From: Leucoraja ocellata
Lineage: Eukaryota
DNA: 64,000 nt
Assembly (NCBI GenBank): GCA_036785375.1
Contig: JAWMAR010000916.1
Location: forward strand, 372,001 to 436,000
Direction of reading: 5' to 3'
Within the stretch, counting starts at the first letter, position 1, and every line of letters starts with the position of its first letter. A program made the position numbers and the translations under genes. The notes under the pieces are model-generated. The model had not been told where the DNA came from, did no database searches, and saw only the letters and a program-made list of their open reading frames with translations. Shown here piece by piece: positions 19,298 through 53,299 of the stretch.

Positions 19298-19319
19298 TTT
19301 GAAAATCTCCCAAAAGGGA

Positions 19320-25617: not shown

Positions 25618-25761
25618 GAAACATCGCCCATTCTTTCTGTCCACAGATGCTGCCTGTCCCGCTGAGTTACTCCAGCATTTTGTGTCTACCTCCCAGTCTT
25701 TTTTAATGTGTTTAGCTTTTAACTTTAGAGATACAGAGCAGAAACAGACCCTTCGGCCCAC

Positions 25762-28404: not shown

Positions 28405-29265
28405 TAATAATAATAAAAACATTTATTTATGGGCGCCTTTCAAGAGTCTCAAGGACACCTTACAAAAATTTAGCAGGTAGAGGAAAAACATGTAAGCGGA
28501 ATGAAATAAATAGTAGAGACATGACTAGTACACAAAGTAAAGACAGAATTCAATTCAAAACACAATATGAGGCAATTCAAGCACAGATGAAAAGGGAGGG
28601 GGACGTGGGGCTAGGGATAGGCAGAGGTGAAGAAATGGGTCTTGAGGCGGGACTGGAAGATGGTGAGGGACACGGAATTGCGGATCTGTTGGGGGAGGGA
28701 GTTCCAGAGCCTGTGAACTGCCCTGGAGAAGGCTCTGTCCCCAAAACTGCGGAGGTTGGATTTGTGGATGGAGAGACCGGCTGATGTGGATCTGAGGGAC
28801 CGTGAGGGTTGGTAGGGGGAGAGGAGGTCAGTAGATATGGGGTGGCCAGATGGTGGAGGGCTTTGTAGGTGAGTATCAGGATTTTGTAGGTGATCTGGTG
28901 GGAGATGGGAAGCCAGTGAAGTTGTTTGAGGACTGGAGTGATGTGATGCCAGGATTTGGTGTGGGTGATGAGTCGGGCGGCTGCGTTCTGGACCAGTTGG
29001 AGTCGGATGATGTAGGTGGAGCTGATGCCAAGGAGAAGTGAGTTGCAATAGTCCAGTCGGGAGGAGATGAAGGCATGGATGAGTCATTCAGCAGCGGGAG
29101 GCGTGAGAGAAGGTCTGAGTTTGGCGATGTTGCGGAGATGAAAGAAGGAGGTTTTAATGACATGGCGGATGTGAGGTTCAAGGGAGAGGGTGGAATCAAA
29201 GATCACGCCAAGGTTGCGGGCCTGGGGAGATGGTGAGACAGTGGTGCCGTCGATGGTGAGAGTGG
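28405..29265 (-). mobile_element. L2-type LINE 3' fragment
   Basis: GDRAFS...LWNSLP...FQSRLKTHFF. Same family as 55190-57390. Confidence 0.85.
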
Positions 29266-29309
29266 GTACTTACTTCCAGCAGCCACTGGTTGTCGTCCAG
29301 GATCCACAG

Positions 29310-30098
29310 AGACTCTCTCTCTCTCTCCCCTCTTTTCCGCTCTCTCTCCTCTCAACCCCCCTCTCTCTCTCCCCTCCCTCTCTCTTTCCCCTCTCTCTCT
29401 CCTCTCGCCCTCTCTTTCTCTCCTCTCACCCCCTCTCTCCCGTCTTCCCCTCTCACTCTCTCCCCTTCCCTCTCTTCTCTCTTCCCCCCTCTCTCCCCTC
29501 TCATTCCCCCCTCTCTCCCTCCCACCTTACTCTTCCCCCTCTCTCTTGTCCCCTCTCTTCTCTCTATCTCCCCCTCTTTCCCCTAACTCTCTCTCCCCCT
29601 CTCTCTCTCCCCCTCGCTTTCTTCTCTCTCTCCCCCTCTCTCCTCACTCCCCCTCGCTTCCCCTCAACCTCTTTCTCCCTCCCTCTCTATCTCTCCCCTC
29701 TCCACACTCCACCCTCTCTCTTTCTCCTCTCTCTCTGTCTCTCCTCTCACTTCTCTCTCTTCCCGTCTCTCTTCCCCATTTCTCCCTCCAACCTCACTCT
29801 CCCCCTCTCCCCTCTCTTTCTCCTCTGTCTCTATCTCTTTTTCTTTGCCCCCCTATCTCTCTTTCCCCGTTTCCCTTTCCACCTCTCTTTTACCACCCCT
29901 CTCTCTTCCCCTTCTCTCTCCCCTTCTCTCTCCCATTCTCTCCTACCCTCTCCACCCACTCTCTCTCTTCCCTTTCTTCCCTCTCACCCCTCTCTCACTT
30001 CCCCCCCTCTCTCCCCCACCTCCATTCACTACCCTCTCTCTCCTCTCTCTCCCCTGTCTCCCTGTCTCCTTCCTCTCTCTCTCTCTCTCCACCTCCCT
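29310..30098. repeat. ~0.8-kb CT-rich polypyrimidine low-complexity tract
   Basis: Almost exclusively C/T on the + strand. Confidence 0.95.
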
Positions 30099-30871
30099 TT
30101 GAGAGTCTGTCCCTTCGGCACAGAGACTCTGGCGGCAGCGGCAGCGGCTCAACGCTTCTGACGCCTCCGACGCCCGGGACTTGCACTGTCCGGAATGCTC
30201 CATGGCCAGAGCTGCAGCGAGCGACACGCCGGCCCCGGCAAACACTCGTCCGTCCCGGCTCCCCGCATCTGTTCCGGCCGCTGGTTCTGCTCCCATCCCT
30301 CCCGCAGCCTCTTCTCTCCAACACCCGCGGACCGTGCAGTTTATCCGAGTTTTCACATTTTCGTTGATCACAAAATTTCTCACCACTGAGCGTGAGAAAT
30401 TTCTGATGAGCGTGAGGGCGTGAGAGTTTGCTTGAGGGCGTGAGTCTCACGCTCAAAGCGTGAGAGTTGGCAGCCCTGATATGTATACAATCATGAGAGG
30501 AATAGATCGGGTAGATGCACAGAGTAGGGGAATCGAGAACAAGAGAACAATAGGTTTAAGGTGAAGGGGAAAAGATTTAATAGGAATCTGAGGGGTAACT
30601 TTTTTACACAAAGGATGGTGGGTGTATGGAACTAGCTGCCAGAGGGGGTAGTTGAGGCAGGGACTATCCCAACGTTAAGAAACAGTTAGACAGGTCCATA
30701 GATAGGACAGGTTTAGAGGGACATGGGCCAAATGCAAGCAGGTGGGACTGGTGTAGCTGGGACATGTTGGCCGGTGTGGGCAAGTTGGGCCAAAGGGCCT
30801 GTTTCCACACTGTGACTATGATTAATTGGATTAACCTCTATCAGGCAATTCACCATGGACTTGACACTCAC

Positions 30872-30935
30872 TCTGCATCTTGGCTTTGATGTGCAGTGGG
30901 AACACTCGGTCTAACCCGCCCTTCTGTTAACTGGG
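30872..30935 (-). CDS. B7-like gene, candidate cytoplasmic exon ((A)QLTEGRVRPSVPTAHQSQDA)
   Basis: Acceptor ccatcAG and donor GTGAGT. Open in phase 1, matching the end of the TM exon. Unique sequence between repeats. Confidence 0.55.
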
Positions 30936-31879
30936 CTGATGGAATATTTTGTGTAGGAATTATAATAATTGAATATTGTCAAATTCCTGGGCGTGTATAT
31001 TTCCGACAATCTTTCTTGGACCCAGCAGAATGATGCAATCATAAAGAAAGCACAACAATGCCTCTACTTCCTGATAAGATTACGGAGATTCAGTATGTCA
31101 AAGAGGATTGTATCGTGGCCTGGTTCAGCAACTTGAACGTCCAGGAGCAGAAAAGACGGCAAGAAGTTGTAAACACTGCCCAGGCCATCACCGGCTCTGA
31201 CCTCCCCACCATCGAAGGGATCTATCGTAGTCGCTTTCTCAAAAAGACAAACCAACATCATCAAAGACTCACACCATCCTGGCCACACACTCATCTCACC
31301 ACTGCCATCGGGAAGAAGGTACAGGAGCCTGAGAACTGTAACATCCAGGTTCAGGAACAGCTGCTTCCCTACAGCCATCAGGCAATTAAACACAACAACT
31401 TCATATGCAATGATGGTTATTATTATTATTACACTGTTATTGTTTGTTCTTTTTTTCCGGAGTTTTTGTTATTATTTATTATGATTACATATTCTGTTGT
31501 GCTGCAGCAAGTAAGAATTTCATTGTTCTATCTGGGACATATGACAATAAAACACTCTTGACTAGATTGAATAAGTTTATTGGCCAAGTATGTTCACATA
31601 CAAGGAATTTTCCTTGGTGCTCCGCTCACAAGTGACAACATGACACACAGTGACAATTAAGAATGACACATAAAACATTAAGCATTAAGAAGAAAACATT
31701 ATCGATTAAACATGTGAATTAAATAAAATACCAGAACAAAAGGAGGCTACATATTTTTGGTTATTCAGTAGAGCTACTACTCATGGAAAAAAGCTATTTT
31801 TATGTCTGGCTGTGGCAGCTTTGAAAGTCCGGAGTCGCCTTCCAGAAGGAAGTGATTCAAAGAGTTTGTGGCCAGGGTG

Positions 31880-34136
31880 AGAGGGGTCAGAGATGATCGC
31901 ATAGGAATGATCCATAGGAATGAAGGGGCTGTCGTGAATAAATAGTCTATTCTGGAAAAAGAACGGTGAACATGAGAAAAAAGAGAATTGTCTAGCAGTT
32001 GGGTTCAGGAATCTCCAGGGGTCCACATAACCATTTTGTTGCATAAACAGTGAAAAGGCCTTTGCCAAACCAGAAGGTGTCCCCTTAGAACTAGACCTAT
32101 CAAGCAGTGGATTAATAGCACAGATCAGGTCTCCGGAAAAAATTAGTTGGTGCGTGTTCAGATCGGGTATTAATGACAAAACCTTATTTGCAAAGTGAAC
32201 ATCATCCCAATTAGTGGCATAAACATTCACTAAGACGACAGGTTTTTGAAAAAGACACCCGGAAACTATAATAAACCGGCCATTAGGGTCACTGACTATG
32301 TCGGACGGTGTAAACTGTATTCTTTTGATGATTAATATTGCCACACCCCTGGACCTGCTATTAAATCTGGAGTGAAAGATCTGACTAACCCACGTTTTAC
32401 ACAGTCTATTATGATCTTCCAGTCTTAAGCGAGTTTCTTGTAGAAGTAGTATATCTGTTTTTAGTTGTTTCAGATGAGAAAAAACTTTAGCTGTTTTAAC
32501 AGGACCATTAAGCCCCTTTACATTCCAAGATATAAACCTCACAGCCTCCATCAATATCACCATTAGCCATATTTCAAAATATACATTTCAAAAATACATA
32601 CAGGGTCTGCCATCCAAAACAACGCAAAGGTTGCATGTGAGAGCCCACAATGGGGAAAAAAAAGAAAAAAGAAAGTCGAGCGCATTTGTAACTATCAAAG
32701 AATAAGCTGCCATTACCCCAAAACCTTTCCCTCATCCCCCTTACAATATCAAAAAAAACATTTAACCCCCAAAAACCTAGATCTTCTTCCCCAACTGAGG
32801 ACAATCGCAGGCATTACAAAACAAAAAACTTCCAAAGTGTTCCCTAACTAAAATTTTAGATCCAATTGAGGGTGGCTCCCTTCTTTGAAAGTTGTACAGT
32901 CGTTTGTTCTACTTTTAAGATATATAGCCTAAATATAACCCCGGACAAGCAAAGCATTACGAGAAAGAAGGAAGTAAAAAATTGTATCCCAGAGAGCAAT
33001 TTAAAAGTCCTCAACCCACTACTCAAATTCTGTAGCATGGCAGTTCAGCTCAGTCGAGTTCCACAAATTAAACTGAAGAATGAACAAATCTTACAAAGAT
33101 GACCAGTTTACTGCCGCAGGAGGCCGTGCCAATGCCGCGTGGATATCCTAAAAGGTCATTGTTCTTCACGGCCGTCACCTCCCCAGCGCGAGTAATTAAA
33201 CATTTTGGCAGCCTCTTGTGTATCGAAGTAGTGCTTTTTACTTTCATGAGTGACCTGGAGCCGGGCAGGATACAGGAGGCAAAACCAAACCCCTTTCTCA
33301 TAGAGCAGGGATTTTATTTCCCTAAAAGTTGCACGTTTTCTCCCCAGCTCCGCGCTGAAATCCTCATGAAAAAACACCCAGTGCCCTGGGAAGGACAGTT
33401 CCTGCCTCCGTTTGGTGATGATACGATATTGATCCTGGAAGTAATGAAAGAGAACCAGGAACATTCTTGGCTTAGATGGCTTGATATTCGGGACGTTCGT
33501 TAGTGTTGGTCCAATTCGGTGGGCATGCGAATGCATAAAAGGTCTTGGGAAGAAATCAGCCCCCAGCACTTCTCCAAAAAACTCAGTCATAAATTTAACA
33601 GGGTCCGAACCTTCCAACCTTTTGGGAATCCCGACCACCTTTAGGTTGGATCTCCGCGAGCGGTTCTTGAGGTCATCTAGCTTCACTTTCAGAAGCACAT
33701 TTTCACTCTATTGTAGCTATGGCAGTTTCAGCGCTCACCAGTCTGTCACTGTGGTCATTCAGGCCGTCTTCAACCTCGCGAATGTGTTCATCATGCATTT
33801 CGTAATAGGATTTAACTTGCTCCAGACTGGTGTTCACCGGCGACAAAGCCACTTCAAGTTCTCTTTTTAGGACAGAGTTAACCGCTTGTGTCATATCGGC
33901 AAGGAGTGCTGAACGAAGCCTCTCGAGATCCTCTGGTAGTTCAAGGCCAGATTCAGGCAGCGGTGCCAAAGCTGCAGCACTCTTGCTTGAGATTTTGCCG
34001 TCTTTTCCTCCAGTTTTAGCTCGACGGCTCATTTTACTTATTGTATCAGGTGCTTAATACTGCCTCGAGTCCTTCATAGTGTTTAATAGTGGCTTATCTC
34101 AAAAATTGTTCATTCCATGTTCAACCCGGAAGTCCA
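31880..34136 (-). mobile_element. L1-clade LINE 5' half (5' UTR, ORF1, start of ORF2 endonuclease), degraded
   Basis: Starts GGACTTCCGGG. ORF1 includes DDLKNRSRRSNLKVVGIP and LLYPARLQV (frameshifted). ORF2 includes SWNVKGLN and LLQET. Confidence 0.85.
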
Positions 34137-34294
34137 CTCCAGCATTTTGTGTCTATCTCAAGGATGTGCAGATGTGGTTTACACTGAAGATGATGGAGTC
34201 CAGCATTACTCCAGAATTTTGTGTCTACCAAGTCAAACCTTCTAGCCTGCTCTTATGTCTAATTTTGCTAAATTATAGAGTTTAAAACACTCAC

Positions 34295-34420
34295 CATTTA
34301 GTAAGACATTTCGTAGAGAGAGGCAGAGCAGCAGCAGCACTATCATAGCAGCGATGGCTATCAGCTCAACCCACCAGAAACGTTTTGCTCTCTTCGACAC
34401 AACCATTCCCTTCGTATTCT
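34295..34420 (-). CDS. B7-like gene, stalk/transmembrane exon
   Basis: Acceptor ttcccgctAG and donor GTGAGT. 126 bp, phase 1-1, encoding NTKGMVVSKRAKRFWWVELIAIAAMIVLLLLCLSLRNVLLN. Confidence 0.8.
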
Positions 34421-34829
34421 CTAGCGGGAAAGACACCGACACAGAAACATCCACTCAATATTGATGCAAATATTAAAAATCAGAAACCAAAAAAACTTTC
34501 ATGCAATTTTCCACAGAATCCTTGGAGGTATGAGGAATACATTGTAGTTTAGAGGTTTAGAGATACAGTGCGGAAACAGGCCCTTGGGCCCACCGAGTCT
34601 GCACCGACCAGCGATCCCCACACATTAGCACTATCCCACACTAGGAACAATTTACATTTATACCAAGCCAATTAACCTGTACGTCTTTAGAGTGTGGGGG
34701 GAAACTGGAAATCTCGGGAAAAAAAACAGCATCTCACACACAGAACAGTACAGCACAGGAATAGGCCCTTCGGCCCATAATGTCTGTGCCAAACACGATG
34801 CCATGTTAAACTAATCCCTTAGTTTTAGT

Positions 34830-35108
34830 TTAGTTTAGAGATACAGCGCGGAAACAGGCCCTTCAGCCCAACATGTCCGCGGTGACCAGTGATCCCCGCA
34901 CACTAACACACTAGGGACAATGTACAATTATACCAAGCCATTTAGCCTACAAACCTGTACGTCTTTGGAGTGTAGGGGGAAACTGGAGATCCCGGAGAAA
35001 GCCAACACAGGTCACAGGGAGAACGTACAAACTCCGTACAGACAGCACCCGCACCCGGGTCTCTGGTGCTGTGAGGCAGCAACTCTACCGCTGCGCCACC
35101 GTGCCACC
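34830..35108 (-). mobile_element. tRNA-derived V-SINE (HE1-like)
   Basis: A-box GGTGGCGCAGCGG and V-domain GCTGTCTGTACGGAGTTTGTACGTTCTCCC. Further copies lie at about 25760, 36640, 41260, 43030, 47660, 49700, 50405, 50700 and 57590. Confidence 0.85.
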
Positions 35109-35259
35109 CCGGTGTTTCACAACTGTGGTATATCAAGCTGTATCACTAAACTAAACTAAACTTCCTAAGTATGCTTACATTTGACAACTTCCACTTGTCA
35201 CCACCATTGTGTAGTAAGGAACTGCAGATGCTGGTTTACACAGAAGACAGACACAATAT

Positions 35260-36019
35260 AACCATGTAATAACCATATAACAATTACAGCACAGAAACAG
35301 GCCGTCTCGACCCTTCTAGTCCGTGCCGAACACATAATCTCCCCTAGTCCCATATACCTGCGCTCAGACCATAACCCTCCATTCCCTTCCCATCCATATA
35401 ACTATCCAATTTATTTTTAAATGATAAAAACAAACCTGCCTCCACCACCTTCACTGGAAGCTCATTCCACATCGCTACCACTCTCTGAGTAAAGAAGTTC
35501 CCCCTCATGTTACCCCTAAACTTCAGTCCCTTAATTCTCAAGTCATGTCCCCTTGTTTGAATCTTCCCTACTCTCAGTGGGAAAAGCTTTTCCACGTCAA
35601 CTCTGTCTATCCCTCTCATCATTTTAAAAACCTCTATCAAGTCCCCCCTTAACCTTCTGCGCTCCAAAGAATAAAGCCCTAACTTATTCAACCTTTCTCT
35701 GTAACTTAGTTGCTGAAACCCAGGCAACATTCTAGTAAATCTCCTCTGTACTCTCTCTATTTTGTTGACATCCTTCCTATAATTAGGTGACCAAAATTGT
35801 ACACCATACGCCAGAATTGGCCTCACCAATGCCTTGTACAATTTTAACATTACATCCCAACTTCTCTACTCAATGCTCTGATTTATAAAGGCCAGCACAC
35901 CAAAAGCTTTCTTTACCACCCTATCTACATGAGATTCCACTTTCAGGGAACTGTGCACAGTTATTCCCAGATCCCTCTGTTCACCTACATTCTTCAATTC
36001 CTTACCATTTACCATGTAA
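35260..36019 (-). mobile_element. CR1-type LINE 3' fragment specific to the third B7 module
   Basis: ORF 35344..35850. AATAT is duplicated on both sides. The element is absent at the paralogous sites (~41650 and ~49080). Confidence 0.85.
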
Positions 36020-36146
36020 AATATGCTGGAGTAACTCAGCGGGACAGGCAGCATCTCTGGAGAGAAGGAATGGGTGAGACCCTTCTCCAGACACCACCGC
36101 TGTTATTACAAAGAAAAGCTTAAAAACAAAGATCATGAATCTTTAC

Positions 36147-36491
36147 CTGCTATTTGTAGTGTGACTGTAACTCGTAGAACCACGCTGTTGCCCTCAGTGG
36201 GGAGTTTCAACTGAATGAGGCATGTGTACGTGGCTGCGTCGCTCACTCGGAGGTCGGTGAGAAGAAGGGAGAAGTTGCCGTGTTTGAACTCTGCGGTGAA
36301 CAGCCTTGCCCTGGTGCCCAGGCCCAATGTGTTGTCCTCTCTGCCCTTATGGAAGGAATGGATTAACTGAGTGGCCACCTGCCAGTAAACACGAATATCA
36401 TTGTTGGCTTGTTTCCCCACGTTGGTGTCCAGACAGGGCAGGAGGGCACTTTCACCCACAATCCCCGTCACTGTGAGGCTAGACGGCGACA
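36147..36491 (-). CDS. B7-family IgV exon, third copy in transcript order
   Basis: 345 bp, phase 1-1, AG/GT boundaries. GESALLPC...IRVYWQ...GNFSLLL.DL.VSDAATYTC is CD80/CD86/ICOSL-like. Confidence 0.9.
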
Positions 36492-37829
36492 CTGGGGGTA
36501 AAATAAGGACAAAATAAGCCCGGGTCTCGTCCACTCCTTCTCCCCAGAGAAGCTGCCTGTCCCGCTGAGTTACTCCAGCGTTTTGTCTATCTTCGGCTTA
36601 AACCAGCATCTGTAGTTCCTTCCTACACATTTTTTTTAGTTTAGAGATACAGCGCGGAAACAGGTCCTTTGTCCCATCGAGTCCACGCCGACCAGCGATC
36701 CCCGCACACTAACACACTAGGGACAATTTACAATTATACCAAGCCATTTAGCCTACAAACCTGTACGTCTTTGGAGTGTAGGAGGAAACTGGGGATCCCG
36801 GAGAAAGCCAACACAGGTCACAGGGAGAACGTACAAACTCCGTACAGACAGCACTCGTAGTCAGGATCGTCCCCGGGTCTCTGGTGCTGTGAGGCAGCAA
36901 CTCTATCGCTGCGCCACCGTGCCACCCCGGTGTTTCACAACTGCGCTGAATGCCATTTAAAATTCTCAATGGCCCTTTCACTACTTCCAATTGTTTTACT
37001 ACCCTTGAGTGCCCAAAATAGGTGAGAGGGGGAAAGTTTAAAGGAGAAGTGAGAGGTCAGTTTTATTACAGAGTGTGGTGGGCGTCTGGAATGTGCTGCC
37101 AGGGGTGGTGGTGGAGGCTGATACGATAGTGGTGTTTAAGAGGCTTTTAGTTAGGCACAGGGATATGCAGGGAACGGAGGGATATGGATCATGAGAAGGC
37201 AGGGGAGATCGGTTTTACTTTGCATCATGCTTGGCACAGACATTGTGGGCCGAAGGGCCTGTTCTGTGCTGGATCTTCATAAGTTCGTAAGTGATAGGAG
37301 CAGAATGAGGCCATTCGGCCCATCAAGTCTACTCCGCCACTCAATCATGGCTGATCTATCTCTCCCTCCTAAACCCATTCTCCTGCCTTCTCCCCATAAC
37401 CCCTGACATCTTCTATAACTTTGCCACCAGCTACAGCGGGTGATGGCATAGTTATGGGGCGTGAAATAGGAGCTCAACAAATCAAAGAATTATGACAGAA
37501 CGGCACCGTCATCTCAGTGAAAGACAATACAAGTTTTTTTATTCTATGGATCCCAGAAATAACAAATAGAAAATACTTAGCAGGTCAGGCAGCATCTATG
37601 GGAAGAGAAGTATTCAACGTTTCAGGTTGAATAGCCAAGAGACATTTAGTTTAGTTTAGTTTAGTTTATTGTCACGTGTATCGAGGTACATTGGAAAGCT
37701 GTTTTTGTTGCGTGCTATCCAGCCAGCGGAAAGACTATACATGATTACAATGGAAGAAATCTCTCAATCCAAAACGTCACCTGTCCCCATTCTCCAGAGA
37801 TGCTGCCTGATCCGCTGAGTTACTCCAGC

Positions 37830-38730
37830 AATTACTCATGACTGCGTAGCCGGTCAAAGTGCGAACTCCATCATCAAGTTCGCTGACGACACCACTGTTG
37901 TGGGACGTATCACTGATGGGGACGAGTCAGAGTATAGAAGTGAGATCGACCGACTGACCAAATGGTGCCAGCACAATCACATGGCCCTCAACACCAGCAA
38001 AACCAAGGAACTGATTGTGGACTTTGGAAGGGGTAGGATGGGGACCCACAGTCCCGTTTATATTGGTGGAAAGGGTCGAGAGCTTCAAATTCCTGGGCGT
38101 GCACATCTCTGATCTCTCCTGGTCTTTCTTATAAAGAAAGTTCATCAGCGCCTCTACTTCCTGAGAAGATTAAGGAGAGTTGGTATGTCAAGGAGGACTC
38201 TCTCTAACTTCTACAGGTGCACAGTAGAGAGCATGCTGATCGGTTGCATCGTGGCTTGGTCTGGCAACTGGAGTGCCCAGGAGCGAAAAAGCAGTAAACA
38301 CTGCTCAGTCCATCATCGGCTCTGACCTCCCTACCATCGAGGGGATCTATCGCAGTCGCTGCCCCAAAAAGGCTGGCAGTATCATCAAGGACCCACATCA
38401 TCCTGGCCACACACTCATCTCCCCGCTACCTTCAGGTAGAAGGTACAGAAGCCTGAAGACTGCAACGTCCAGGTTCAGAAACAGCTACTTCCCCACAGCC
38501 ATCAGGCTATTGAACTCAACTCAAACAAAACTCTGAACATTAATAGCCCATTATCTGTTTATTTGCACTTTATCTGTTTTATTTATTCATGTGTGTATAT
38601 ATTCATACAATGGTATATGTACACACTGATCTGGTCAGTATTCATGCCTTCTATATTCTGTTGTGCTGAAGCAAAGCAAGAATTTCATTGTCCTATCTGG
38701 GACACATGACAATAAACTCTCTTGAATCTT
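37830..38730 (+). mobile_element. Rex1/Babar-type LINE 3' fragment (paralog ~44230-45130)
   Basis: [13 protein letters not shown]...SKTKELIVDF...LPSGRRYRS. Confidence 0.8.
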
Positions 38731-38922
38731 GAATTTGTGTCTATCTTCAGTGTAAACCAGCATCTGCAGTTCCTTCCTATACATGATTACAATGTACGGA
38801 TACAGGATAAAGGGAATAACCTTTAGTGCAAGATAAAGTCCAGTAAAGTCAACTTGACTTTAAAAGTTTGTTGTCTATATTGAGGGCGTTTTTCAAGGAG
38901 AGAGATGTTTTTTCCCACTTAC

Positions 38923-39219
38923 TTGCAGTAAAGGTTTCAGTTTGTTTCTCCTTCAGCCTGGTGTTGTGAATGCTACAGGTGATGCAGTGTACTCCAGCAG
39001 ACACCCACAGGAACGAGGTTACGTTGCACAGTCTCTGCGGGGAGCAGTCGGTGTGGGTTGTGGCCGTGCTGTTCGGATCTAGGTTCAGGGACCCGCAGGT
39101 CCAGCCCACCGCTGGGGCTGGATACCCTCCCCAGGAGGAGCAGGTCAGCCTCAGCACCCCTCATGCACCTTGCTGTCCCTCCGACAGATGCGTACTCAGG
39201 GTCGGCTTGGCAAAGTGGG
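38923..39219 (-). pseudogene. B7-family IgC exon, second copy, with premature TGA at 39163-39161
   Basis: 297 bp, phase 1-1. Reads AHFAKPTLSTHLSEGQQGA*GVLRLTCSSWGGYPAP. The paralogous exon has GGA at this codon. Confidence 0.85.
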
Positions 39220-39299
39220 CTGGAATGGAACAGCAGCGTTAACATTAACAAGACAGCGCTGACTGGCTAGCACCCAACAAAAGCTTTTCACTGTTCCTC

Positions 39300-40275
39300 G
39301 ACACACTTTTATTTTACATTTCAAAATATACTTTCTTCGAGAAATAAATATATCTAACACATGATCCTTACAAGTCTCCATCCAACATTCTCGGAGGCTA
39401 TACATACATTCAATACTGTTTACACAAATCACACAATTTTACCCCACACCCGTGCCACTCATGTGGCCCACTTGCATGGAATCCCTTCCCTTATTTTAAG
39501 GGGAGTCTCCACCACACCCTGCCCCCCATGTCCAGCAGCAGAAGGACCCTAGACTGTGGTCCTCCCCCACCGAGCCTTGGCGTTGGCTGCACCAAGCTTC
39601 AGTGCGTCCCTTAGCACGTACTCCTGCAGTCTGCAGCGGGCCAGTCGGCAACATTCCCCGACGGACAACTCGCTCCGCTGGGTGGTCAACAACGCTCGGG
39701 CAGACCAAAAGCGTCTTTCACCGAGTTGATGACCTTCCAGCAGCACTCGATGTCAGTCTCTGAATGTGTCCCTGGGAACAGTCCGTAAATCAGAGTCCTC
39801 TGTGATGGAGCTGTTGAGAATAAATCGTTACAGAGATGGGTCTCCAATTCTTTATATCCTTCATCTCCCCCTTCTGCTTGTAGATTAGGGTGATGCTGCC
39901 CTTCCTCATGCAGTCTGACATGCTGCCGGCTAGAAGCATGTCGTTGTACATTTCCAGCAGGTCCGGGCCCACCCAGTCCCACAGAGCCGAATACAACTCG
40001 GCCGGTAAGCCATCGCTTCCGGGAGTTTTACTCGTCAAAGGAACGGATGGAGCCAGTCAGCTCCTCTAGGGTCAGTGGTTGGTCCAGACTCTCCCGCTTG
40101 CTGTCCTCCAAGACCTCCGTGATGGAGGACAGGAAATTCTGGGAGGCGGTGGTGCTGTCCGTGGCCTTTCTGGTGCACAAACCTGTTTAAAAGGTTTTGC
40201 AGATCCTCAGCATGTCCGTCTGCAAGGATGTTACCGAGCCGTCCTCCTCCCTAAGGCTGTTGATCACAGAGCTTT
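39300..40275 (-). mobile_element. Tx1/Keno-like fragment (paralog ~45700-46675)
   Basis: KTPGSDGLPAELY...KNWRPIS joined to the C-terminus WKVINSVKDALWSAR...LRDALKLG...ARWG and a 3' UTR. Confidence 0.75.
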
Positions 40276-41774
40276 GGTTTAAACCAAAGATAAACACAAA
40301 CTAGCAGGAGGAATCAGTGTCAGGAGGAATCAGAGGGATTGTGTGTCTATCTTTATGTACTTGTATCCCACGGTCTCTCAGTTCTAAGAATCTCCCTTTC
40401 ATTCACTGTGTACCTGCTGGCGTAGCTTTGGGTTAAATGTACAAAATGTTGCATTCCATTGAATTAAATTGCAGCTGAGTTTGAGTTTAGTTTATTGTCA
40501 CGTGTACTGAGGTACAAGGAAAAGAGTTCTGTAGAGAGCTCTGCCATTCGCTTGCCCATTTCCCCAGTTGAACTTGACCCTGGTGCAACTATAAACTACC
40601 TTCCTCACTGTCCACCACACCTACAATTTTGGTGCCATCTACACACTTGATCATCTATATTCTCTTCCACACTGCAAACAAAGACCAGCCAGTCCAAATC
40701 GGTGCCATTTTTAAATTGGTGAAGAGAGAAGATTGTTCATGACATGGTTTTTTTGTCTCTGGTGCGTCAGAGACAGATTGGAGATCTGTTAGGAAGTAAA
40801 TAACATTCCAAGAGCTTTAGTGTTGACAGTCAAACCCTTTATCCCCAGGGTGGGAATGTCAAAGACTAGATGGCGTAGCTTTCAGGTGAGAGGGGCAAAG
40901 TTTAAAGGAGATGTGCGGGGCAAGTTGTGTCACACAGACACAGGGTGGTGGGTGCCTGGAACACGCTGCCAGGGGTGGTGGTGGAGGCAGATACGACAGT
41001 GGTGTTTGACATGGTAGTGCAGGGATTAGATCGATGTGGATCAAGTGCAGGCAGATGAGATTAGTTTAGCTGGGTATCATGTTTGCTGGGCCGAAAGGTC
41101 CATTCCTGTGCTGTACTGTTCTATGTTCCACCTATCAGCTACTGCTGGGTCCTGAAGAATATCTGCAGACGATGACGATTTTGAGTGTATGGAGCAACGA
41201 TCAGGGAAACGAGTCGGTCACAACCATTACGAGTAATATAGAAGGAACAAGTCCATTGGGCAGCACGGTGGCGCAGCGGTAGAGTTGCTGTCTCACAGCG
41301 CCAGAGACCCAGGTTCGATCCTGACTATGGGTGCTGTCTGTATGGAGTTTGTACGTTCTCCCCGTGACCTGCGTGAGTTTTCTCTGGAAGCTCCGGTTTC
41401 CTCCCACATTCCAAAGTTGTACAGGTTGTAGGTTAATGGGCTTGGTATAAATGTGAAATTGTGCCTAGTGTTATTGTGCGGGGATTGCTGGTCGGCACGG
41501 ACTCGATGGGCCAAAGGGCCTGTTTCCAAGCTGTATCACTAAACTAAACTAAATTTCCTAAGTATGCTTACATTTGACAACTTCCACTTGTCACCACCAT
41601 TGTGTAGGAAGGAACTGCAGATGCTGGTTTACACAGAAGACAGACACAATATGCTGGAGTAACTCAGCGGGACAGGCAGCATCTCTGGAGAGAAGGAATG
41701 GGTGAGACCCTTCTCCAGACACCACCGCTGTTATTACAAAGAAAAGCTTAAAAACAAAGATGATGAACCTTTAC

Positions 41775-42119
41775 CTGCTATTTGTAGTGTGACTGTAACT
41801 CGTAGAACCACGCTGTTGCCCTCAGTGGGGAGTTTCAACTGAATGAGGCATGTGTACGTGGCTGCGTCGCTCACTCGGAGGTCGGTGAGAAGAAGGGAGA
41901 AGTTGCCATGTTTGAACTCTGCGGTGAACAGCCTTGCCCTGGTGCCCAGGCCCAATGTGTTGTCCTCTCTGCCCTTATGGAAGGAATGGATTAACCGAGT
42001 GGCCACCTGCCAGTAAACACGAATATCATTGTTGGCTTGTTTCCCCACGTTGGTGTCCAGACAGGGCAGGAGGGCACTTTCACCCACAATCCCCGTCACT
42101 GTGAGGCTAGACGGCGACA
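41775..42119 (-). CDS. B7-family IgV exon, second copy
   Basis: 345 bp, phase 1-1. One Q>R change relative to the other two V exons. Confidence 0.85.
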
Positions 42120-42143
42120 CTGGGGATAAAATAAGGACAAAAT

Positions 42144-42906
42144 TATTATCTAATTGGTGGCCGATTAGGAAAAGGGGAGATGCAACGAGACCTGGGTGTC
42201 ATGGTACACCAGTCATTGAAAGTAGGAATGCAGGTGCAGCAGGCAGTGAAGAAAGCGAATGGTATGTTAGCATTCATAGCAAAAGGATTTGAGTATAGGA
42301 GCAGGGAGGTTCTACTGCAGTTGTACAAGGTCTTGGTGAGACCACACCTGGAGTATTGCGTACAGTTTTGGTCTCCAAATCTGAGGAAAGACATTCTTGC
42401 CATAGAGGGAGTGCAGAGAAGGTTCACCAGACTGATTCCTGGGATGGCAGGACTTTCATATGAAGAAAGACTGGATAGACTCGGCTTGTACTCGCTAGAA
42501 TTTAGGAGATTGAGGGGGGATCTTATAGAAACTTACAAAATTCTTAAGGGGTTGGACAGACTAGATGCAGGAAGATTGTTCCCGATGTTGGGGAAGTCCA
42601 GAACAAGGGGTCACAGTTGAAGGATAAAGGGGAAATGCTTTGGGACCAAGATGAGAAAAGCATTTTTCACACAGAGAGTGCTGAATCACTGGAACTCTCT
42701 GCCACAGAATGTAGTTGAGGCCAGTTCATTGGCTATATTTAAGAGGGAGTTAGATGTGGCCCTTGTGGCTAAAGGGATCAGGGGGTATGGAGAGAAGGCA
42801 GGTACAGGATACTGAGTTGGATGATCAGCCATGATCATTCTGAATGGCGATGCAGGCTCGAAGGGCCAAATGGCCTACTCCTGCACCTAATTTCTATGAT
42901 TCTATG
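42144..42906 (+). mobile_element. CR1-type LINE 3' fragment inserted ~22 nt upstream of the V2 splice acceptor
   Basis: ORF 42180..42620. AAAAT is duplicated. The element is absent at the V1 and V3 acceptors. Confidence 0.88.
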
Positions 42907-45321
42907 AAAATAAGCCCGGGTCTCGTCCACTCCTTCTCCCCAGAGAAGCTGCCTGTCCCGCTGAGTTATTCCAGCGTTTTGTCTATCTTCGACTTAAACC
43001 AGCATCTGCAGTTCCTTCCTACACATTTTTTTTAGTTTAGAGATACAGCACGGAAACAGGCCCTTTGGCCCATCGAGTCCACGCCGACCAGCGATCCCCG
43101 CACACTAACACACTAGGGACAATTTACAATTATACCAAGCCATTTAGCCTACAAACCTGTACGTCTTTGGAGTGTAGGAGGAAACTGGGGATCCCGGAGA
43201 AAGCCAACACAGGTCACAGGGAGAACGTACAAACTCCGTACAGACAGCACTCGTAGTCAGGATCGTCCCCGGGTCTCTGGTGCTGTGAGGCAGCAACTCT
43301 ATCACTGCGCCACCGTGCCACACCGGTGTTTCACAACTGCGCTGAATGCCATTTAAAATTCTCAATGGCCCTTTCACTACTTCCAATTGTTTTACTACCC
43401 TTGAGTGCCCAAAATAGGTGAGAGGGGGAAAGTTTAAAGGAGAAGTGAGAGGTCAGTTTTATTACAGAGTGTGGTGGGCGTCTGGAATGTGCTGCCAGGG
43501 GTGGTGGTGGAGGCTGATACGATAGTGGTGTTGAAGAGGCTTTTAGTTAGGCACAGGGATATGCAGGGAACGGAGGGATATAGATCATGAGAAGGCAGGG
43601 GAGATTGGTTTTACTTTGCATCATGCTTGGCACAGACATTGTGGGCCGAAGGGCCTGTTCTGTGCTGGATCTTCATAAGTTCGTAAGTGATAGGAGCAGA
43701 ATGAGGCCATTCGGCCCATCAAGTCTACTCCGCCACTCAATCATGGCTGATCTATCTCTCCCTCCTAAACCCATTCTCCTGCCTTCTCCCCATAACCCCT
43801 GACATCTTCTATAACTTTGCCACCAGCTACAGCCGGTGATGGCATAGTTATGGGGCGTGAAATAGGAGCTCAACAAATCAAAGAATTATGACAGAACGGA
43901 ACCGTCATCTCAGTGAAAGACAATACAAGTTTTTTTATTCTATGGATCCCAGAAATAACAAATAGAAAATACTTAGCAGGTCAGGCAGCATCTATGGGAA
44001 GAGAAGTATTCAATGTTTCAGGTTGAATAGCCAAGAGACATTTAGTTTAGTTTAGTTTAGTTTATTGTCACGTGTATCGAGATACATTGGAAAGCTGTTT
44101 TTGTTGCGTGCTATCCAGCCAGCGGAAAGACTATACATGATTACAATGGAAGAAATCTCTCAATCCAAAACGTCACCTGTCCCCATTCTCCAGAGATGCT
44201 GCCTGATCCGCTGAGTTACTCCAGCAATTACTCATGACTGCTTAGCCGGTCAAAGTGTGAACTCCATCATCAAGTTCGCTGACGACACCACTGTTGTGGG
44301 ACGTATCACTGATGGGGACGAGTCAGAGTATAGAAGTGAGATCGACCGACTGACCAAATGGTGCCAGCACAATCTCATGGCCCTCAACACCAGCAAAACC
44401 AAGGAACTGATTGTGGACTTTGGAAGGGGTAGGATGGGGACCCACAGTCACGCTTATAATGGTGGAAAGGGTCGAGAGCTTCAAATTCCTGGGCGTGCAC
44501 ATCTCTGAAGATCTCTCCTGGTCTTTCTTATAAAGAAAGCTCATCAGCGCCTCTACTTCCTGAGAAGATTATGGAGAGTCGGTATGTCAAGGAGGACTCT
44601 CTCTAACTTCTACAGGTGCACAGTAGAGAGCATGCTGATCGGTTGCATCGTGGCTTGGTCTGGCAACTGGAGTGCCCAGGAGCGAAAAAGCAGTAAACAC
44701 TGCCCAGTCCATCATCGGCTCTGACCTCCCTACCATCGAGGGGATCTATCGCAGTCGCTGCCCCAAAAAGGCTGGCAGTATCATCAAGGACCCACATCAT
44801 CCTGGCCACACACTCATCTCCCCGCTACCTTCAGGTAGAAGGTACAGGAGCCTGAAGACTGCAACGTCCAGGTTCAGAAACAGCTACTTCCCCACAGCCA
44901 TCAGGCTATTGAACTCAACTCAAACAAAACTCTGAACATTAATAGCCCATTATCTGTTTATTTGCACTTTATCTGTTTTATTTATTCATGTGTGTATATA
45001 TTCATACAATGGTATATGTACACACTGATCTGGTCAGTATTCATGCCTTCTATATTCTGTTGTGCTGAAGCAAAGCAAGAATTTCATTGTCCTATCTGGG
45101 ACACATGACAATAAACTCTCTTGAATCTTGAATTTGTGTCTATCTTCAGTGTAAACCAGCATCTGCAGTTCCTTCCTATACATGATTACAATGTACGGAT
45201 ACAGGATAAAGGGAATAACCTTTAGTGCAAGATAAAGTCCAGTAAAGTCAACTTGACTTTAAAAGTTTGTTGTCTATATTGAGGGCGTTTTTCAAGGAGA
45301 GAGATGTTTTTTCCCACTTAC

Positions 45322-45618
45322 TTGCGGTAAAGGTTTCAGTTTGTTTCTCCTTCAGCCTGGTGTTGTGAATGCTACAGGTGATGCAGTGTACTCCAGCAGA
45401 CACCCACAGGAACAAGGTTACGTTGCACAGTCTCTGCGGGGAGCAGTCGGTGTGGGTTGTGGCCGTGCTGTTCGGATCTAGGTTCAGGGACCCGCAGGTC
45501 CAGCCCACCGCTGGGGCTGGATACCCTCCCCAGGAGGAGCAGGTCAGCCTCAGCACCCCTCCTGCACCTTGCTGTCCCTCCGACAGATGCGTACTCAGGG
45601 TCGGCTTGGCAAAGTGGG
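45322..45618 (-). CDS. B7-family IgC exon, first copy, intact
   Basis: 297 bp, phase 1-1. AHFAKPTLS...LRLTCSSWGGYPAPAVGW...CITCSIHN. Confidence 0.88.
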
Positions 45619-47979
45619 CTGGAATGCAACAGCAGCGTTAACATTAACAAGACAGCGCTGACTGGCTAGCACCCAACAAAAGCTTTTCACTGTTCCTCGA
45701 CACACTTTTATTTTACATTTCAAAATATACTTTCTTCAAGAAATAAATATATCTAACACATGATCCTTACAAGTCTCCATCCAACATTCTCGGAGGCTAT
45801 ACATACATTCAATACTGTTTACACAAATCACACAATTTTACCCCACACCCGTGCCACTCATGTGGCCCACTTGCATGGAATCCCTTCCCTTATTTTAAGG
45901 GGCGTCTCCACCACACCCTGCCCCCCCATGTCCAGCAGCAGAAGGACCCTAGACTGTGGTCCTCCCCCACCGAGCCTTGGCATTGGCTGCACCGAGCTTC
46001 AGTGCGTCCCTTAGCACGTACTCCTGCAGTCTGCAGCGGGCCAGTCGGCAACATTCCCCGACGGACATCTCGCTCTGCTGGGTGGTGAACAATGCTCGGG
46101 CAGACCAAAGAGCGTCTTTCACCGAGTTGATGACCTTCCAGCAGCACTCGATGTCAGTCTCTGAATGTGTCCCTGGGAACAGTCCGTAAATCACAGTCCT
46201 CTGTGACGGAGCTGTTCAGAATAAATCGTGACAGAGATGGGTCTCCAATTCTTTATATCCTTCCTCTCCCCCTTCTGCTTGTAGATTAGGGTAATGCTGC
46301 CCTTCCTCATGGAGTCTGACATGCTGCCGGCTAGAAGCATGTCGTTGTACATTTCCAGTAGGTCCAGGCCCACCCAGTCCCACAGAGCCGAGTACAACTC
46401 GGCCGGTAAGCCATCATTTCCAGGAGTTTTACTCGTCAAAGGAATAGATGGAGCCAGTCAGCTCCTCTAGGGTCAGAGGTTGGTCCAGACTCTCCCGCTT
46501 GCTGTTCTCCAAGACCTCCGTGATGGAGGACAGGAAATTCTGGGAGGCGGTGGTGCTGTCCGTGGCCTTTCTGGTGCACAAATCTGTTTAAAAGGTTTTG
46601 CAGATCCTCAGCATGTCCGTCTGCAAGGATGTTACCGAGCCGTCCTCCTCCCTAAGGCTGTTCATCACAGAGCTTTGGTTTAAACCAAAGATAGACACAA
46701 ACTAGCAGGAGGAATCAGTGTCAGGAGGAATCAGAGGGATTGTGTGTCTATCTTTATGTACTTGTATCCCACGGTCTCTCAGTTCTAAGAATCTCCCTTT
46801 CATTCACTGTGTACCTGCTGGCGTAGCTTTGGGTTAAATGTACAAAATGTTGCATTCCATTGAATTAAATTGCAGCTGAGTTTGAGTTTAGTTTATTGTC
46901 ACGTGTACTGAGGTACAAGGAAAAGAGTTCTGTAGAGAGCTCTGCCATTCGCTTGCCCATTTCCCCAGTTGAACTTGACCCTGGTACAACTATAAACTAC
47001 CTTCCTCACTGTCCACCACACCTACAATTTTGGTTCCATCTACACACTTGATCATCTATATTCTCTTCCACACTGCAAACAAAGACCAGCCAGTCCAAAT
47101 CGGTGCCATTTTTAAATTGGTGAAGAGAGAAGATTGCTCATGACATGGTTTTTTTGTCTCTGGAGCATCAGAGACAGATTGGAGATCTGTTAGGAAGTAA
47201 ATAACATTCCAAAAGCTTTAGTGTTGACAGTCAAACCCTTTATCCCCAGGGAGGGAATGTCAAAGACTAGATGGCGTAGCTTTCAGGTGAGAGGGGCAAA
47301 GTTTAAAGGAGATGTGAAGAACAAGTTGTGTCACACAGACACAGGGTGGTGGGTGCCTGCAACACGCTGCCAGGGGTGGTGGTGGAGGCAGATACGACAG
47401 TGGTGTTTGACATGGTAGTGCAGGGATTAGATTGATGTGGATCAAGTGCAGGCAGATGAGATTAGTTTAGCTGGGTATCATGTTTGCTGGGCCGAAAGGT
47501 CCGTTCCTGTGCTGTACTGTTCTATGTTCCACCTATCAGCTACTGCTGGGTCCTGAAGAATATCTGCAGACGATGACGATCTTGAGTGTACGGAGCAACG
47601 ATCAGGGAAACGAGTCGGTCACAACCATTACGAGTAATATAGAAGGAACAAGTCCATTGGGCAGCACGGTGGCGCAGCGGTAGAGTTGCTGTCTCACAGC
47701 GCTAGAGACCCAGGTTCGATCCTGACTACGGTCACTGTCTGTACGGAGTTTGTACGTTCTCCCCGTGACCTGCGTGGGATTTCTCTGGAATCTCCGGTTT
47801 CCTCCCACATTCCAAAGTTGTACAGGTTTGTAGGTTAATGGGCTTGGTATCAATGTGAAATTGTCCCTAGTATTATTGTGCGGGGATTGCTGGTCGGCAC
47901 GGACTCGGTGGGCCAAAGGGCCTGTTTCCAAGCTGTATCACTAAACTAAACTAAATTTCCTAAGTATGCTTACATTTTA

Positions 47980-49004
47980 TAGGTATGTTACAAAACTTAC
48001 CTTCAGCGGCGCTGCAGTTCTGCCACTGGCCGTGTGCGCGACTTTGGCGCCTTTGAGGGGGGAGGGCGGGGTTAAAATGCCGTTTTCTCCTGCCTGTCTG
48101 AGATATATTTTCTCGGGCTGCAAGTTAAATCCGACTGCCGTTCTGTGAATTTTTTATATAAACCGCGGGACAATTTCAACGCTGTAGTAAAATAAAAATC
48201 CATTTCTAATGCTGTCAACGCCGACAACGGGACGGATCTCCCATACGGGACAGTTAAAGGAAAGTCGTTTATTTTACATATAAACGTGCTTCTTAGGATG
48301 ACCTTAATCCAAATTTTACGTTGCGAAAAGGTGATTTAGGCCCCATACTAACCGGCAGTGTTTTTCCTGCCGATATGGGGTTTAAATTCACAGCAAACCG
48401 CAACGTTCCAATCAATCGCATTCCACAAAATCCCACTCACAAGATGATTTAAATGGCCATTAATTTACGGGAATTAAACACTAAATTCCTTCCATTTGGC
48501 CTATAAATTCATGACAATGAGATTTAAAAATCATGTTATATTGTGAATTCTTGTGTGAATGTTATTTGGACACAGACTATTTAAAAATGTTAATTTTCTT
48601 CTAAAGAAATGGATAGATGTTGAGATCTAGTAATTGAATTTTGTAATTAGCTACAATTAGGTAACTAACTAATTATATGCTTTAATTTCAGGTCATCCAA
48701 GTAAGATTGTTTCATATTTGTTTCAGAATGCTTCAATCTATAATAACTGAAAATTTCAGTTCTCTTAATTTCTAAGAAAGTTATGGGCTTTTGACTGTCC
48801 TCAATCACAGCTTTTGTGTTAAGTCAATGGAAAAGCAATTAGGAACAAGATGCTAACTTCCGAATATGAAAATGGCCATATCTTTTTTAATACTGAAGAT
48901 ATGAAAGTGAATTAGGTGTCAAATTAAACTTCTTTTTATGCTTTATCTGATGGGATAAATTGCAGACTTGATTTTTAAAATCTCAAAATGTTGTAACATT
49001 GCTA
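47980..49004. mobile_element. Non-autonomous DNA transposon related to 49-911, opposite orientation
   Basis: Termini TAGGTATGTTACAAAA...TTGTAACATTGCTA. Flanks CATTTTA / CATTTGA. Empty sites at ~35178 and ~41571. Confidence 0.8.
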
Positions 49005-49208
49005 CATTTGACAACTTCCACTTGTCACCACCATTGTGTAGGAAGGAACTGTAGATGCTGGTTTACACAGAAGACAGACATAAAATGCTGGAGTAACTCA
49101 GCGGGACAGGCAGCATCTCTGGAGAGAAGGAATGGGTGAGACCCTTCTCCAGACACCACCGCTGTTATTACAAAGAAAAGCTTAACAACAAAGATCATGA
49201 ATCTTTAC

Positions 49209-49553
49209 CTGCTATTTGTAGTGTGACTGTAACTCGTAGAACCACGCTGTTGCCCTCAGTGGGGAGTTTCAACTGAATGAGGCATGTGTACGTGGCTGCG
49301 TCGCTCACTCGGAGGTCGGTGAGAAGAAGGGAGAAGTTGCCGTGTTTGAACTCTGCGGTGAACAGCCTTGCCCTGGTGCCCAGGCCCAATGTGTTGTCCT
49401 CTCTGCCCTTATGGAAGGAATGGATTAACTGAGTGGCCACCTGCCAGTAAACACGAATATCATTGTTGGCTTGTTTCCCCACGTTGGTGTCCAGACAGGG
49501 CAGGAGGGCACTTTCACCCACAATCCCCGTCACTGTGAGGCTAGACGGCGACA
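49209..49553 (-). CDS. B7-family IgV exon, first copy
   Basis: 345 bp, phase 1-1. The exon translation matches the third copy. Confidence 0.9.
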
Positions 49554-50989
49554 CTGGGGATAAAATAAGGACAAAATAAGCCCGGGTCTCGTCCACTCCT
49601 TCTCCCCAGAGAAGCTGCCTGTCCCGCTGAGTTACTCCAGCATTTTGTCTATCTTCGACTTAAACCAGCATCTGCAGTTCCTTCCTACACATTTTGTTTA
49701 GTTTAGAGATACAGCGCGGAAACAGGCCCTTTGGCCCACCGTGTCCACGCCGACCAGCGATCCCCGCACACTAACACTATCCTACATACACTAGGGACAA
49801 TTTACAATTGTTACCGAAGCCAATTAACCTACTAACATGTATGTCTTTGGAGTGTGGGAGGAAACCGGAGCACCCGGAGAAAAGCCACACGGGTCATGAG
49901 GAGAAGATACAAACTCCGTACACACAGCACCCATAGTCAGGATTGAACACGGGTCTCTGGCGCTGCGAGGCAGTAACTCTACCGTGGCTCCACCCTCTTT
50001 TTTTGAAGAAAAAGTATAACATACAATATTTCTAAGGAACGCAACTATTGTGTTATGGCAGCACTGCAGCTCAAAGTCCCCCTCTTCATCTCCCAGGGTT
50101 ATTGCGGGTCCGTCTGTCCTAGAGTCACGGCTGCCACTAAGTCTGGGCACTCGCAGTCGAGAACCTTCTGGCCACTGGCAATCCCTGTGGACTGGGATCT
50201 GAAACTATAACTTTGTCACTCACATGGAGGAAGGCTGAAATGACTGAGGCTTGGATTGAGTCCTCTCCGGGCGTGCTTCCCACAGGCTGGGGTTGCCCCA
50301 CCACTGGTGTACGTGTGGGACAGGCTGTCGACAGACAGATGAAGCATAACTGCCTTTTCTCAGACACAACAGAGGTGATCCGTGCATCTTTTTAGAGTTA
50401 CAGAGGGTGGTGCAGCGGTAGAGTTGCTGACTTACAGCGCCAGAGACCCAGGTCTGGTCCTGACTATGGGTGCTGCCTGTACGGAGTTTGCACGTTCTCC
50501 CCGTGACCACGTGGATTTTCTCCGGGTGCTCCGGTTTCCTCCCACACTCCAAAGATTCAGGTTTGTAGGTTAATTGGCATCTATAAAGTGTAAATTGTCC
50601 CTAGTATGTAGGTTGGTGCTAGTATGCGGGGTGATCGATGGTCTGTGTGGACTCGGTGGGCCAAAACATACACTGTATCTCTAAACTAAACATGAAATCA
50701 AACCCCTTGGTCCACCGAGCCCACACCGACCATCGATCACCCATTCACACTAGTTCCATGTTATCCCACTTTCCCATCCACTCCGTACACATTAGGGGTA
50801 ATTTTACAGAGGGCCAATTAACCTACAAACCCGCACGTCTTTGGGATGTGGGAGGAAACCGGAGCACCCGGAGAAAACCCACATGGTCACAGGGAGAACG
50901 TGCAAACTCCACACAGGCAACACCCAAGGTCAGGGTCGAACCCGGGTCTCTGGCGCTGTGAGGCAGTGGCTTTAGTTCATGAAACTAAA

Positions 50990-51511
50990 GTGGAGTTAGT
51001 GTTTAATTGCTGTAAATTAAAGTCAATTTAAATCGGCTTTCTAGTGGGTTCATGTGGAACGCGCTGGTTTAGAACGTTCACATTGCGCTAGATTTATGCC
51101 CTCAAATGCCCAGAAAAATACTGCGGGATATAAAGAGCCCAAAATGAACTACTCGCTATAGAAAACTTTAATTATAGCGTTATATACATGCCCCATTTAA
51201 TGTAAAAATAAGGTACATACCTTTAATTGTTTGCTTTATAAAACCCTGGGGCTGCGAGAGATTGCGGAGTGAGATAGTGGTTTTTAAATTACTCTAACTA
51301 TTTTACAAGGCCATAAAAACTAATAATACCTTTTGCGACGGGGTCTTTCAGTGATTTTCCGTTAATGATTTACTAGGCTGAACATTTTCGATTGCAACAG
51401 CCTAGTAAAAATCGCGTTTTAAACCCGCCCCCTCTAAACAGCGCCAAAATCACACACAAGGGGTGGGGCAGATGCTCAGCCACGATTCAGGTAGGTTTTG
51501 TAACATACCTA
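50990..51511. mobile_element. Partial copy of the 49-911 transposon family (right half)
   Basis: Colinear with ~390-911 and ends GTTTTGTAACATACCTA. Confidence 0.8.
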
Positions 51512-51529
51512 TATTTTATGAGAGAATAC

Positions 51530-53240: not shown

Positions 53241-53299
53241 ACTCTGTCTCGAACTACTCCAGGGCATATCAAAGCGAGGGTTACTCCTGGTACTCACTT

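Follow-up and report, generated by a model that had tools for sequence, protein, structure and literature searches.

A probable B7-family pseudogene with three IgV exons in an amplified gene family of the skate Leucoraja ocellata

The window, the whole 64,000-nucleotide stretch of Leucoraja ocellata DNA analysed here (GenBank assembly GCA_036785375.1, contig JAWMAR010000916.1, positions 372,001 to 436,000), carries a gene of the B7 family of costimulatory ligands on its minus strand. Its exons encode immunoglobulin (Ig) variable-type (V) and constant-type (C) domains and a transmembrane (TM) segment in the order V-C-V-C*-V-TM, where the asterisk marks an exon with a stop codon. This copy, whose 5′ end is missing, is probably a pseudogene. 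It belongs to a family of 21 loci whose common form is V-C-V-TM and whose ancestral form, V-C-TM, survives in the same genome.

All six exons lie on the minus strand, are bounded by AG and GT, and have phase 1-1. V1 (49209..49553, 345 nt) is open and matches Pfam V-set, and C1 (45322..45618, 297 nt) is open and matches C2-set_3 and C2-set_2. They are followed by V2 (41775..42119, 345 nt), which has a long interspersed nuclear element (LINE) insertion beside its acceptor, C2* (38923..39219, 297 nt), V3 (36147..36491, 345 nt), and a stalk and transmembrane exon (34295..34420, 126 nt). A first-pass annotation, made from the letters alone, had described three V and two C exons before a single TM exon, and the exon boundaries bear this out. 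V1 and V3 are identical in sequence, while V2 departs from V1 at 2 of 345 nt. Between C1 and C2 there are 3 differences in 297 nt, and one of these creates the TGA at codon 19 of C2. The repeat unit of about 6.4 kb given in that annotation holds as the C1-C2 spacing (6399) and fails for the V spacings (7434 and 5628), whose excess is due to insertions. Alleles specific to the window are C1 205T, TM 35A, and TM 62A.

The left end given in the first-pass annotation, 30872, is not that of the TM exon. That position bounds a putative 64-nt exon (30872..30935, minus strand, AG/GT-bounded) that is unsupported as a real exon; the stretch 30935-30872 matches nothing in the orthologue tails searched, and no RNA joint from TM to 30935 occurs among the contigs listed for runs guessed to be RNA, which are shallow. 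Read-through of the TM donor gives a 17-residue tail resembling those of the RefSeq V-C-V-TM models, which terminate in the same way.

Assignment to the B7 family of a cartilaginous fish, as first proposed, is borne out by several lines of evidence. The window domains score 3e-11 for V-set, 8e-8 for C2-set_3, and 9e-6 for the CD80-like C2-set_2, and B7 members head the search against solved structures. The window copy thus has the B7 succession of IgV and CD80-like C2-set IgC, with V, C, and TM on separate phase 1-1 exons. The signal peptide of a type I membrane protein is absent from this copy and present in the family, at 11 other loci.

In leader-bearing paralogues, exon 1 encodes MDPGIWRAA in all eight whose region was retrieved, and a 62-nt signal-peptide exon sits 1.4 kb upstream of V. 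An alternative exon 1 donor 29 nt downstream was dropped in favour of the conserved MDPG start. The window diverges from these paralogues at 50988, 40 nt downstream of the signal-peptide exon donor, and neither exon has a match in the window plus 20 kb upstream. The signal-peptide exon has 11 matches genome-wide and none on the window’s 487-kb contig. Sequence 4.8 kb upstream of V1 corresponds to sequence 12-21 kb upstream in leader-bearing paralogues, and relative to contig C1039 (contigs of this assembly are given as C-numbers) the window lacks 11.3 kb. The breakpoint of this deletion of about 11 kb, placed at 50988..51511 by comparison with paralogues, abuts a one-ended inverted-repeat element (50996-51511). 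Five loci have this 5′ loss in common, and the C2 stop allele is found at 5 other loci.

With exon 1 and leader deleted and a stop in C2, the window copy is most probably a pseudogene of the unprocessed kind: its introns are kept, it carries disabling lesions, and intact relatives exist elsewhere. No surface protein would be expected from it because the leader is absent. The first-pass annotation had correctly found no signal-peptide exon; its functional gene gives way to the dead pseudogene that it had itself named as the refuting case.

A genome search with V1 as query returned at least 40 V matches at 95-100% identity, at 21 loci on 17 contigs. An exact 29-mer of V has 37 genome matches, TM has 18, and C has 24, counted as pieces. 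Exons were scored from gene cores at 20 of the 21 loci and by blast only on C3222. TM exons are present at 17 loci: one is V-C-TM, 13 are V-C-V-TM, and three are V-C-V-C-V-TM (the window, C892, and the start of C641); the other four loci are fragments. The multiplication is not, as first described, an event in a single gene, since the window is one locus of 21. At all 16 amplified TM-bearing loci the final exons run V-C-V-TM and the conserved tail exon is missing. The sole V-C-TM locus (C641 343-353 kb) retains exon 1, leader, V, C, TM, and two tail exons (C641 335-376 kb), the first of which matches the tails of Leucoraja and Rhinoraja proteins and has one match in the genome. This locus keeps the ancestral form and is referred to as the progenitor.

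The amplified copies travel in large blocks. The window’s segmental-duplication block (18153..64000) is collinear with C1039 at 97-98.8% identity, and the match goes on beyond it in both directions, covering at least 95 kb. The repeat unit on C1039 measures 126 kb, and four contigs bear two loci each, 126-325 kb apart. Since the assembly is partly diploid, with true CD276 on two contigs, the haploid number of loci may be near 11. A Pfam scan of the 146 longest of 432 unmasked open reading frames in one 130-kb unit, which short exons would escape, gave transposon domains, one Roadblock/LC7 domain, and two weak matches below cut-off; apart from the Roadblock/LC7 frame, a processed fragment, no other host gene was found in these 146 frames.

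The junctions inside the gene record how the V-C pair was doubled. Alignment identifies two chimeric short interspersed nuclear elements (SINEs), one before V3 (36635..36943), at the junction of the V-C duplication, and one before V2 (43031-43339). In both, the V-proximal part resembles the SINE upstream of V1 (49690..49994), and the distal part, with 21 nt of unique flank, resembles the SINE of the ancestral C-TM intron (34829..35125), which is also present at the progenitor locus. Collinearity of the progenitor with the window runs from 50991 to 43031, past which the progenitor enters its TM intron. Such a chimera is the mark expected of an unequal crossover between two SINEs that would have doubled V-C. 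At its start the V3-TM intron resembles a V-C intron; the resemblance stops at 35134, an 8-nt filler (35126..35133) follows, and from there the intron matches the far end of a C-V intron. This pattern points to a deletion of about 4.6 kb, equivalent to 41527-36943, that took the last C exon, presumably after the doubling. Behind TM, an L1-like fragment (31900..34197) occupies the position at which the progenitor carries 5.4 kb, including the conserved cytoplasmic exon.

The two modules of the window differ by 87 substitutions in 5071 nt, which is within what separates paralogues from one another (mean 1.3%, maximum 2.4%; 17 intron segments). Over 40-43 kb, module 2 differs by 0.1-0.5% from the copies on C1866, C3370, and C641 and by 1.7% from module 1. 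It also carries a LINE fragment (42143..42907) that is absent from module 1 and recurs at the loci on these three contigs. A further inverted-repeat element occupies the V1-C1 intron (47988..49003). The three-V gene of the window is thus a mosaic of paralogue segments and not a local tandem copy; the mosaic rules out a purely local tandem duplication. The three-V copy at the start of C641 has the same origin, since it too begins without a leader and carries the LINE at V2. The three-V form on C892 has a leader and a C exon killed by a different lesion, so it arose separately, and three-V copies were made at least twice.

These observations fit a history in six steps. An ancestor with leader, V, C, TM, and tail, of the form that survives at one locus, would have undergone unequal crossover between the SINE upstream of V and the SINE in the C-TM intron. 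The 4.6-kb deletion and a separate deletion of the conserved tail exon left the scars described above and would have followed, giving the V-C-V-TM form that is amplified in blocks of about 126 kb. Misaligned crossover between paralogues would then have produced the three-V mosaics, and in the window lineage the 5′ end is gone and C2 contains the stop.

The coding state of the paralogues is mixed. Open leader-V-C-V-TM frames with canonical splice sites are found at five of the 16 amplified TM-bearing loci (C719, C807, C824 twice, and the second copy on C1039). In the remaining 11 the leader is lost, a stop, frameshift, or insertion intervenes, or a splice site is dead, although one of them, C895a, would still yield an in-frame V-V-TM. 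A C exon has lost its acceptor to a short deletion and its donor to an insertion at C895 218051-218347 and C892 353115-353411, which leaves an in-frame V-V-TM in the leader-bearing copy, and two further amplified loci have a stop just past the TM helix. Altogether, C exons have been lost through four different lesions, while most V exons are open. In C and TM, the progenitor locus as assembled here carries three deletions of one base each. The full-length exons (34 V, 16 C, 17 TM) hold 22 non-synonymous and 15 synonymous variants, and diversity is 0.92% in V exons against 1.26% in an intron sample. Overall, the amplified family gives the impression of birth-and-death drift within a duplicated region that is unstable.

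Several loci show local rearrangements. C1579 and C770 carry rearranged twin fragments, with the last tail exon followed by C-V and no TM, that are probably haplotypes of one locus. The TM exon is locally duplicated on C1010 (233973 and 240415), and two leaderless copies (C641 14970-16057 and C895 393049-394149) have an insertion of about 750 nt that interrupts the C exon. Other clusters of B7-like or butyrophilin-like V exons lie on C666 (many), C276, C175, C1052, C591, C1073, and C424.

Relatives of the gene in skates, rays, and sharks are annotated as CD276-like or ICOS ligand-like. The elasmobranch sequences form one clade (support 100/99) that follows the species tree and has a long skate branch. 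The window V-C pair falls inside this clade (100/99, 14 rows) and is 99% identical to the Leucoraja V-C-TM model; the window V is 98% identical to Leucoraja erinacea models. The orthologues found are V-C-TM, except for Leucoraja V-C-V-TM models (XP_055522047, XP_055487388) and a V-V-C-TM model in the horn shark Heterodontus francisci (XP_067875583). The horn shark model has two identical V domains, and another isoform has one V; its doubling may be either convergent or an assembly artefact. The paralogues share the MDPG exon 1 start and the leader with orthogroup members such as XP_051899339 (Pristis), XP_032869055 (Amblyraja), and XP_055487412 (Leucoraja); unlike these, the skate gene described here is multi-copy, takes the V-C-V-TM form, and lacks the conserved tail exon. 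The tail of the Amblyraja radiata RefSeq model XP_032869055 is probably wrong: its TM exon is spliced into an L1 ORF1-like peptide that matches the window’s L1 behind TM, which also suggests that this L1 predates the amplification. A second chondrichthyan B7 group is visible in the tree.

The gene is not CD276 (B7-H3). True CD276 is a separate gene on C61 that groups with tetrapod CD276 (100/100) and is 58% identical to frog CD276 in its C domain, as against 34% in the V domain for the window gene. The multiplication is recent and independent of the mammalian B7-H3 duplication, as first suggested. Against solved structures, V-C scores 105 bits for ICOSL, 101 for B7-H3, 74 for PD-L1, and 70 for CD80; six of 20 named profile hits are tetrapod ICOSL, and the V domain has a long, ICOSL-like FG loop. 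The free tree does not join the orthogroup to tetrapod ICOSL, and an approximately unbiased (AU) test, run with six rows omitted, rejects none of the ICOSL, CD276, and fish CD80-like placements. The p-AU is 0.08 both for ICOSL and for CD80/86, the latter placement involving basal fish CD80-like sequences only and having profile scores below those of ICOSL. Profile scores and the FG loop lean toward ICOSL; the tree and the AU test do not decide between ICOSL and CD80/86, the two placements joined in the first-pass label. A synteny search with PF12584, the family of an ICOSLG neighbour, found no match anywhere, controls included.

Receptor binding may have changed in skates. In human ICOSL, the V domain makes the contact with ICOS, and F122 is among the residues involved (PMC7545189). 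The site aligned to F122 is Asn in skates and mostly Tyr in other elasmobranchs. PMC11599192 describes three CD28/CTLA4-related genes in the little skate and ICOS and ICOSL as undetected in teleosts.

Several known systems resemble this family. In mammalian 4Ig B7-H3 (CD276, V-C-V-C), a product of tandem duplication of the V-C exons whose function may not be that of the 2Ig form (PMC3172298), the V-C pair was likewise doubled by crossover into near-identical modules. The skate family differs in that another gene is involved, the last C is deleted, the whole gene is amplified, and the window copy is leaderless. ICOS ligand (B7-H2) is the best single V-C structure match and shares the long FG loop; the tree separates the two, and the skate Asn stands against human F122.

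HHLA2 (B7-H7) has the architecture V-C-V-TM, the same domain order as the amplified skate form. Membership in HHLA2 was rejected: the skate V copies are 0-2 nt apart and a V-C-TM ancestor lies in the same genome. The skate V domains, more than 98% identical, are recent, and HHLA2 ranks 24th of 30 look-alikes, so the shared V-C-V shape is convergent. More broadly, the skate loci resemble the general class of gene families that originate in segmental duplications through unequal crossover between repeats, in their SINE-SINE junction, large near-identical blocks, mosaic paralogues, and many truncated copies. They differ from that class in their cargo, a co-signalling ligand. None of the papers returned by literature searches is a report of this skate B7 expansion, although supplements or papers outside those read may mention it.

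Contigs from five runs guessed to be RNA (X15, X16, X17, X18, and X20; depth 3-7), from samples other than the sequenced animal, bear on expression. X15 and X16, from one study, contain a V-to-C splice preceded by 61 and 110 unplaced letters, respectively, which would fit a leader exon. In X17 a V piece comes with some 36 additional letters, and the first part of C is covered; in X20 a TM piece is attached to 58 letters that find no place in the window. X15-X18, the second RNA set, have no TM exon cover. The C allele in X15 and X16 is the non-stop one. X15, X16, and X18 carry V allele 166C, which agrees with the Amblyraja residue and occurs in none of the 39 V exons examined in the genome. The family, through one or another of its copies, is transcribed and spliced in these other samples. 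No C-to-V or V-to-TM joint appears among the contigs listed for the five runs, which at this low depth is not evidence of absence.

Several observations weigh against regarding the window copy as dead and the family as drifting. V1, C1, V2, V3, and TM are open with canonical splice sites, so the frame would survive skipping of C2*. When the 34 kb upstream were scanned for hydrophobic exons that start with ATG, a single candidate emerged (59819-59761); it has a phase-1 donor, lies inside a transposon, and could in principle serve as a leader. The progenitor’s deletions may be consensus errors because intact versions are recorded (XP_055487412 and an unnamed Logan protein), and some lesions elsewhere may be errors too. 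RefSeq predicts V-C-V-TM proteins in Leucoraja erinacea, and V, C, and TM exons alike show a ratio of non-synonymous to synonymous polymorphism (pN/pS) of about 0.5, which hints weakly at constraint on the family. The neutrality test gives P = 0.03, 0.09, and 0.14 at kappa 1, 3, and 5, so that this ratio is not clearly below neutral with transition bias.

The uniformly phase 1-1 exons and the cryptic upstream candidate would suit a working gene with a tripled ectodomain, in-frame skipping isoforms, and an unrecognised leader, close to what was first proposed. This is very improbable for the window copy: its promoter region, exon 1, and signal-peptide exon are deleted, its C2 carries a TGA, and the RNA contigs have the non-stop C allele together with V 166C, which none of the 39 V exons examined contains. 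The predicted preservation of frame holds for the exons; skipped isoforms were not seen in RNA contigs, at a depth too low to count as evidence of absence. Even less credible is an assembly artefact behind the three-V structure or the high copy number, despite the partly diploid assembly, the placement of every locus on a contig below 1 Mb, and indels in some copies that resemble read errors. The substitutions and private insertions that separate the modules argue against it, as the first-pass annotation had held of the copy-specific insertions. C641 repeats the three-V leaderless layout with lesions of its own, four contigs hold two well-separated loci each, and RefSeq places V-C-V-TM models on two scaffolds and the V-C-TM model on a third, possibly not independently of this assembly. 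Allowing for haplotigs would cut the count by half at most, to about 11.

A different alternative is compatible with the pseudogene reading of the window copy itself. The window copy would be debris, amplification would have been favoured, and intact leader-V-C-V-TM paralogues would be expressed to give short-tailed proteins with two heads, which act on a CD28-family receptor as ligands or decoys. The five open loci, the lower diversity of V exons than of introns, the loss of C exons through four lesions while most V exons stay open, the two identical V domains of the horn shark model, and the long skate branch are consistent with it. It is nonetheless doubtful: the listed RNA contigs contain no C-to-V or V-to-TM joint (at the depth noted), pN/pS is not significant under realistic transition bias, near-identical V copies provide no repertoire, and lesions inherited by descent represent few independent events. 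Pseudogenisation of the window copy within a drifting, amplified family is preferred.

Other features of the window lie away from the B7 exons. Two diverged copies (68-84%) of an element, presumably DIRS-like, with reverse-transcriptase-like and integrase-like frames, lie at 12964-17291 and 58742-63203. A 2.5-kb direct duplication (912-3426 and 22645-25167, 97% identity) is part of a larger local duplication that includes a processed fragment. This fragment is an intronless, 5′-truncated open frame with a Roadblock/LC7 domain (19677-19980, minus strand; copies at C916:368149-368486 and C1039 L052:4840-5130), which is taken to resemble LAMTOR2 and is a processed copy carried in the duplication block.

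The three-V copy in the window is itself of little importance, being most likely dead. The family to which it belongs keeps all the intermediates in one genome, namely the V-C-TM ancestor, the SINE junction, the C-deletion scar, the amplification, and the further crossovers, and so offers a clearer record than that of 4Ig B7-H3. It presents an HHLA2-type V-C-V shape arising anew, and it indicates that RefSeq “CD276-like” labels in sharks and rays span a distinct unnamed orthogroup. As a tentative and rather unlikely extension, the skate lineage may have turned a single-copy B7 gene into copy-number-variable, two-headed, nearly tail-less ligands or decoys. V doubling would then be favoured for avidity or cell-contact spacing, as the separate horn shark doubling may hint, and the three-V copies would show that this process continues. 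Expression of the five intact copies, if it occurs, would give skates a dosage-variable, two-headed B7 ligand, and the effects of ligand valency and length on T-cell co-signalling would become testable in cartilaginous fish.

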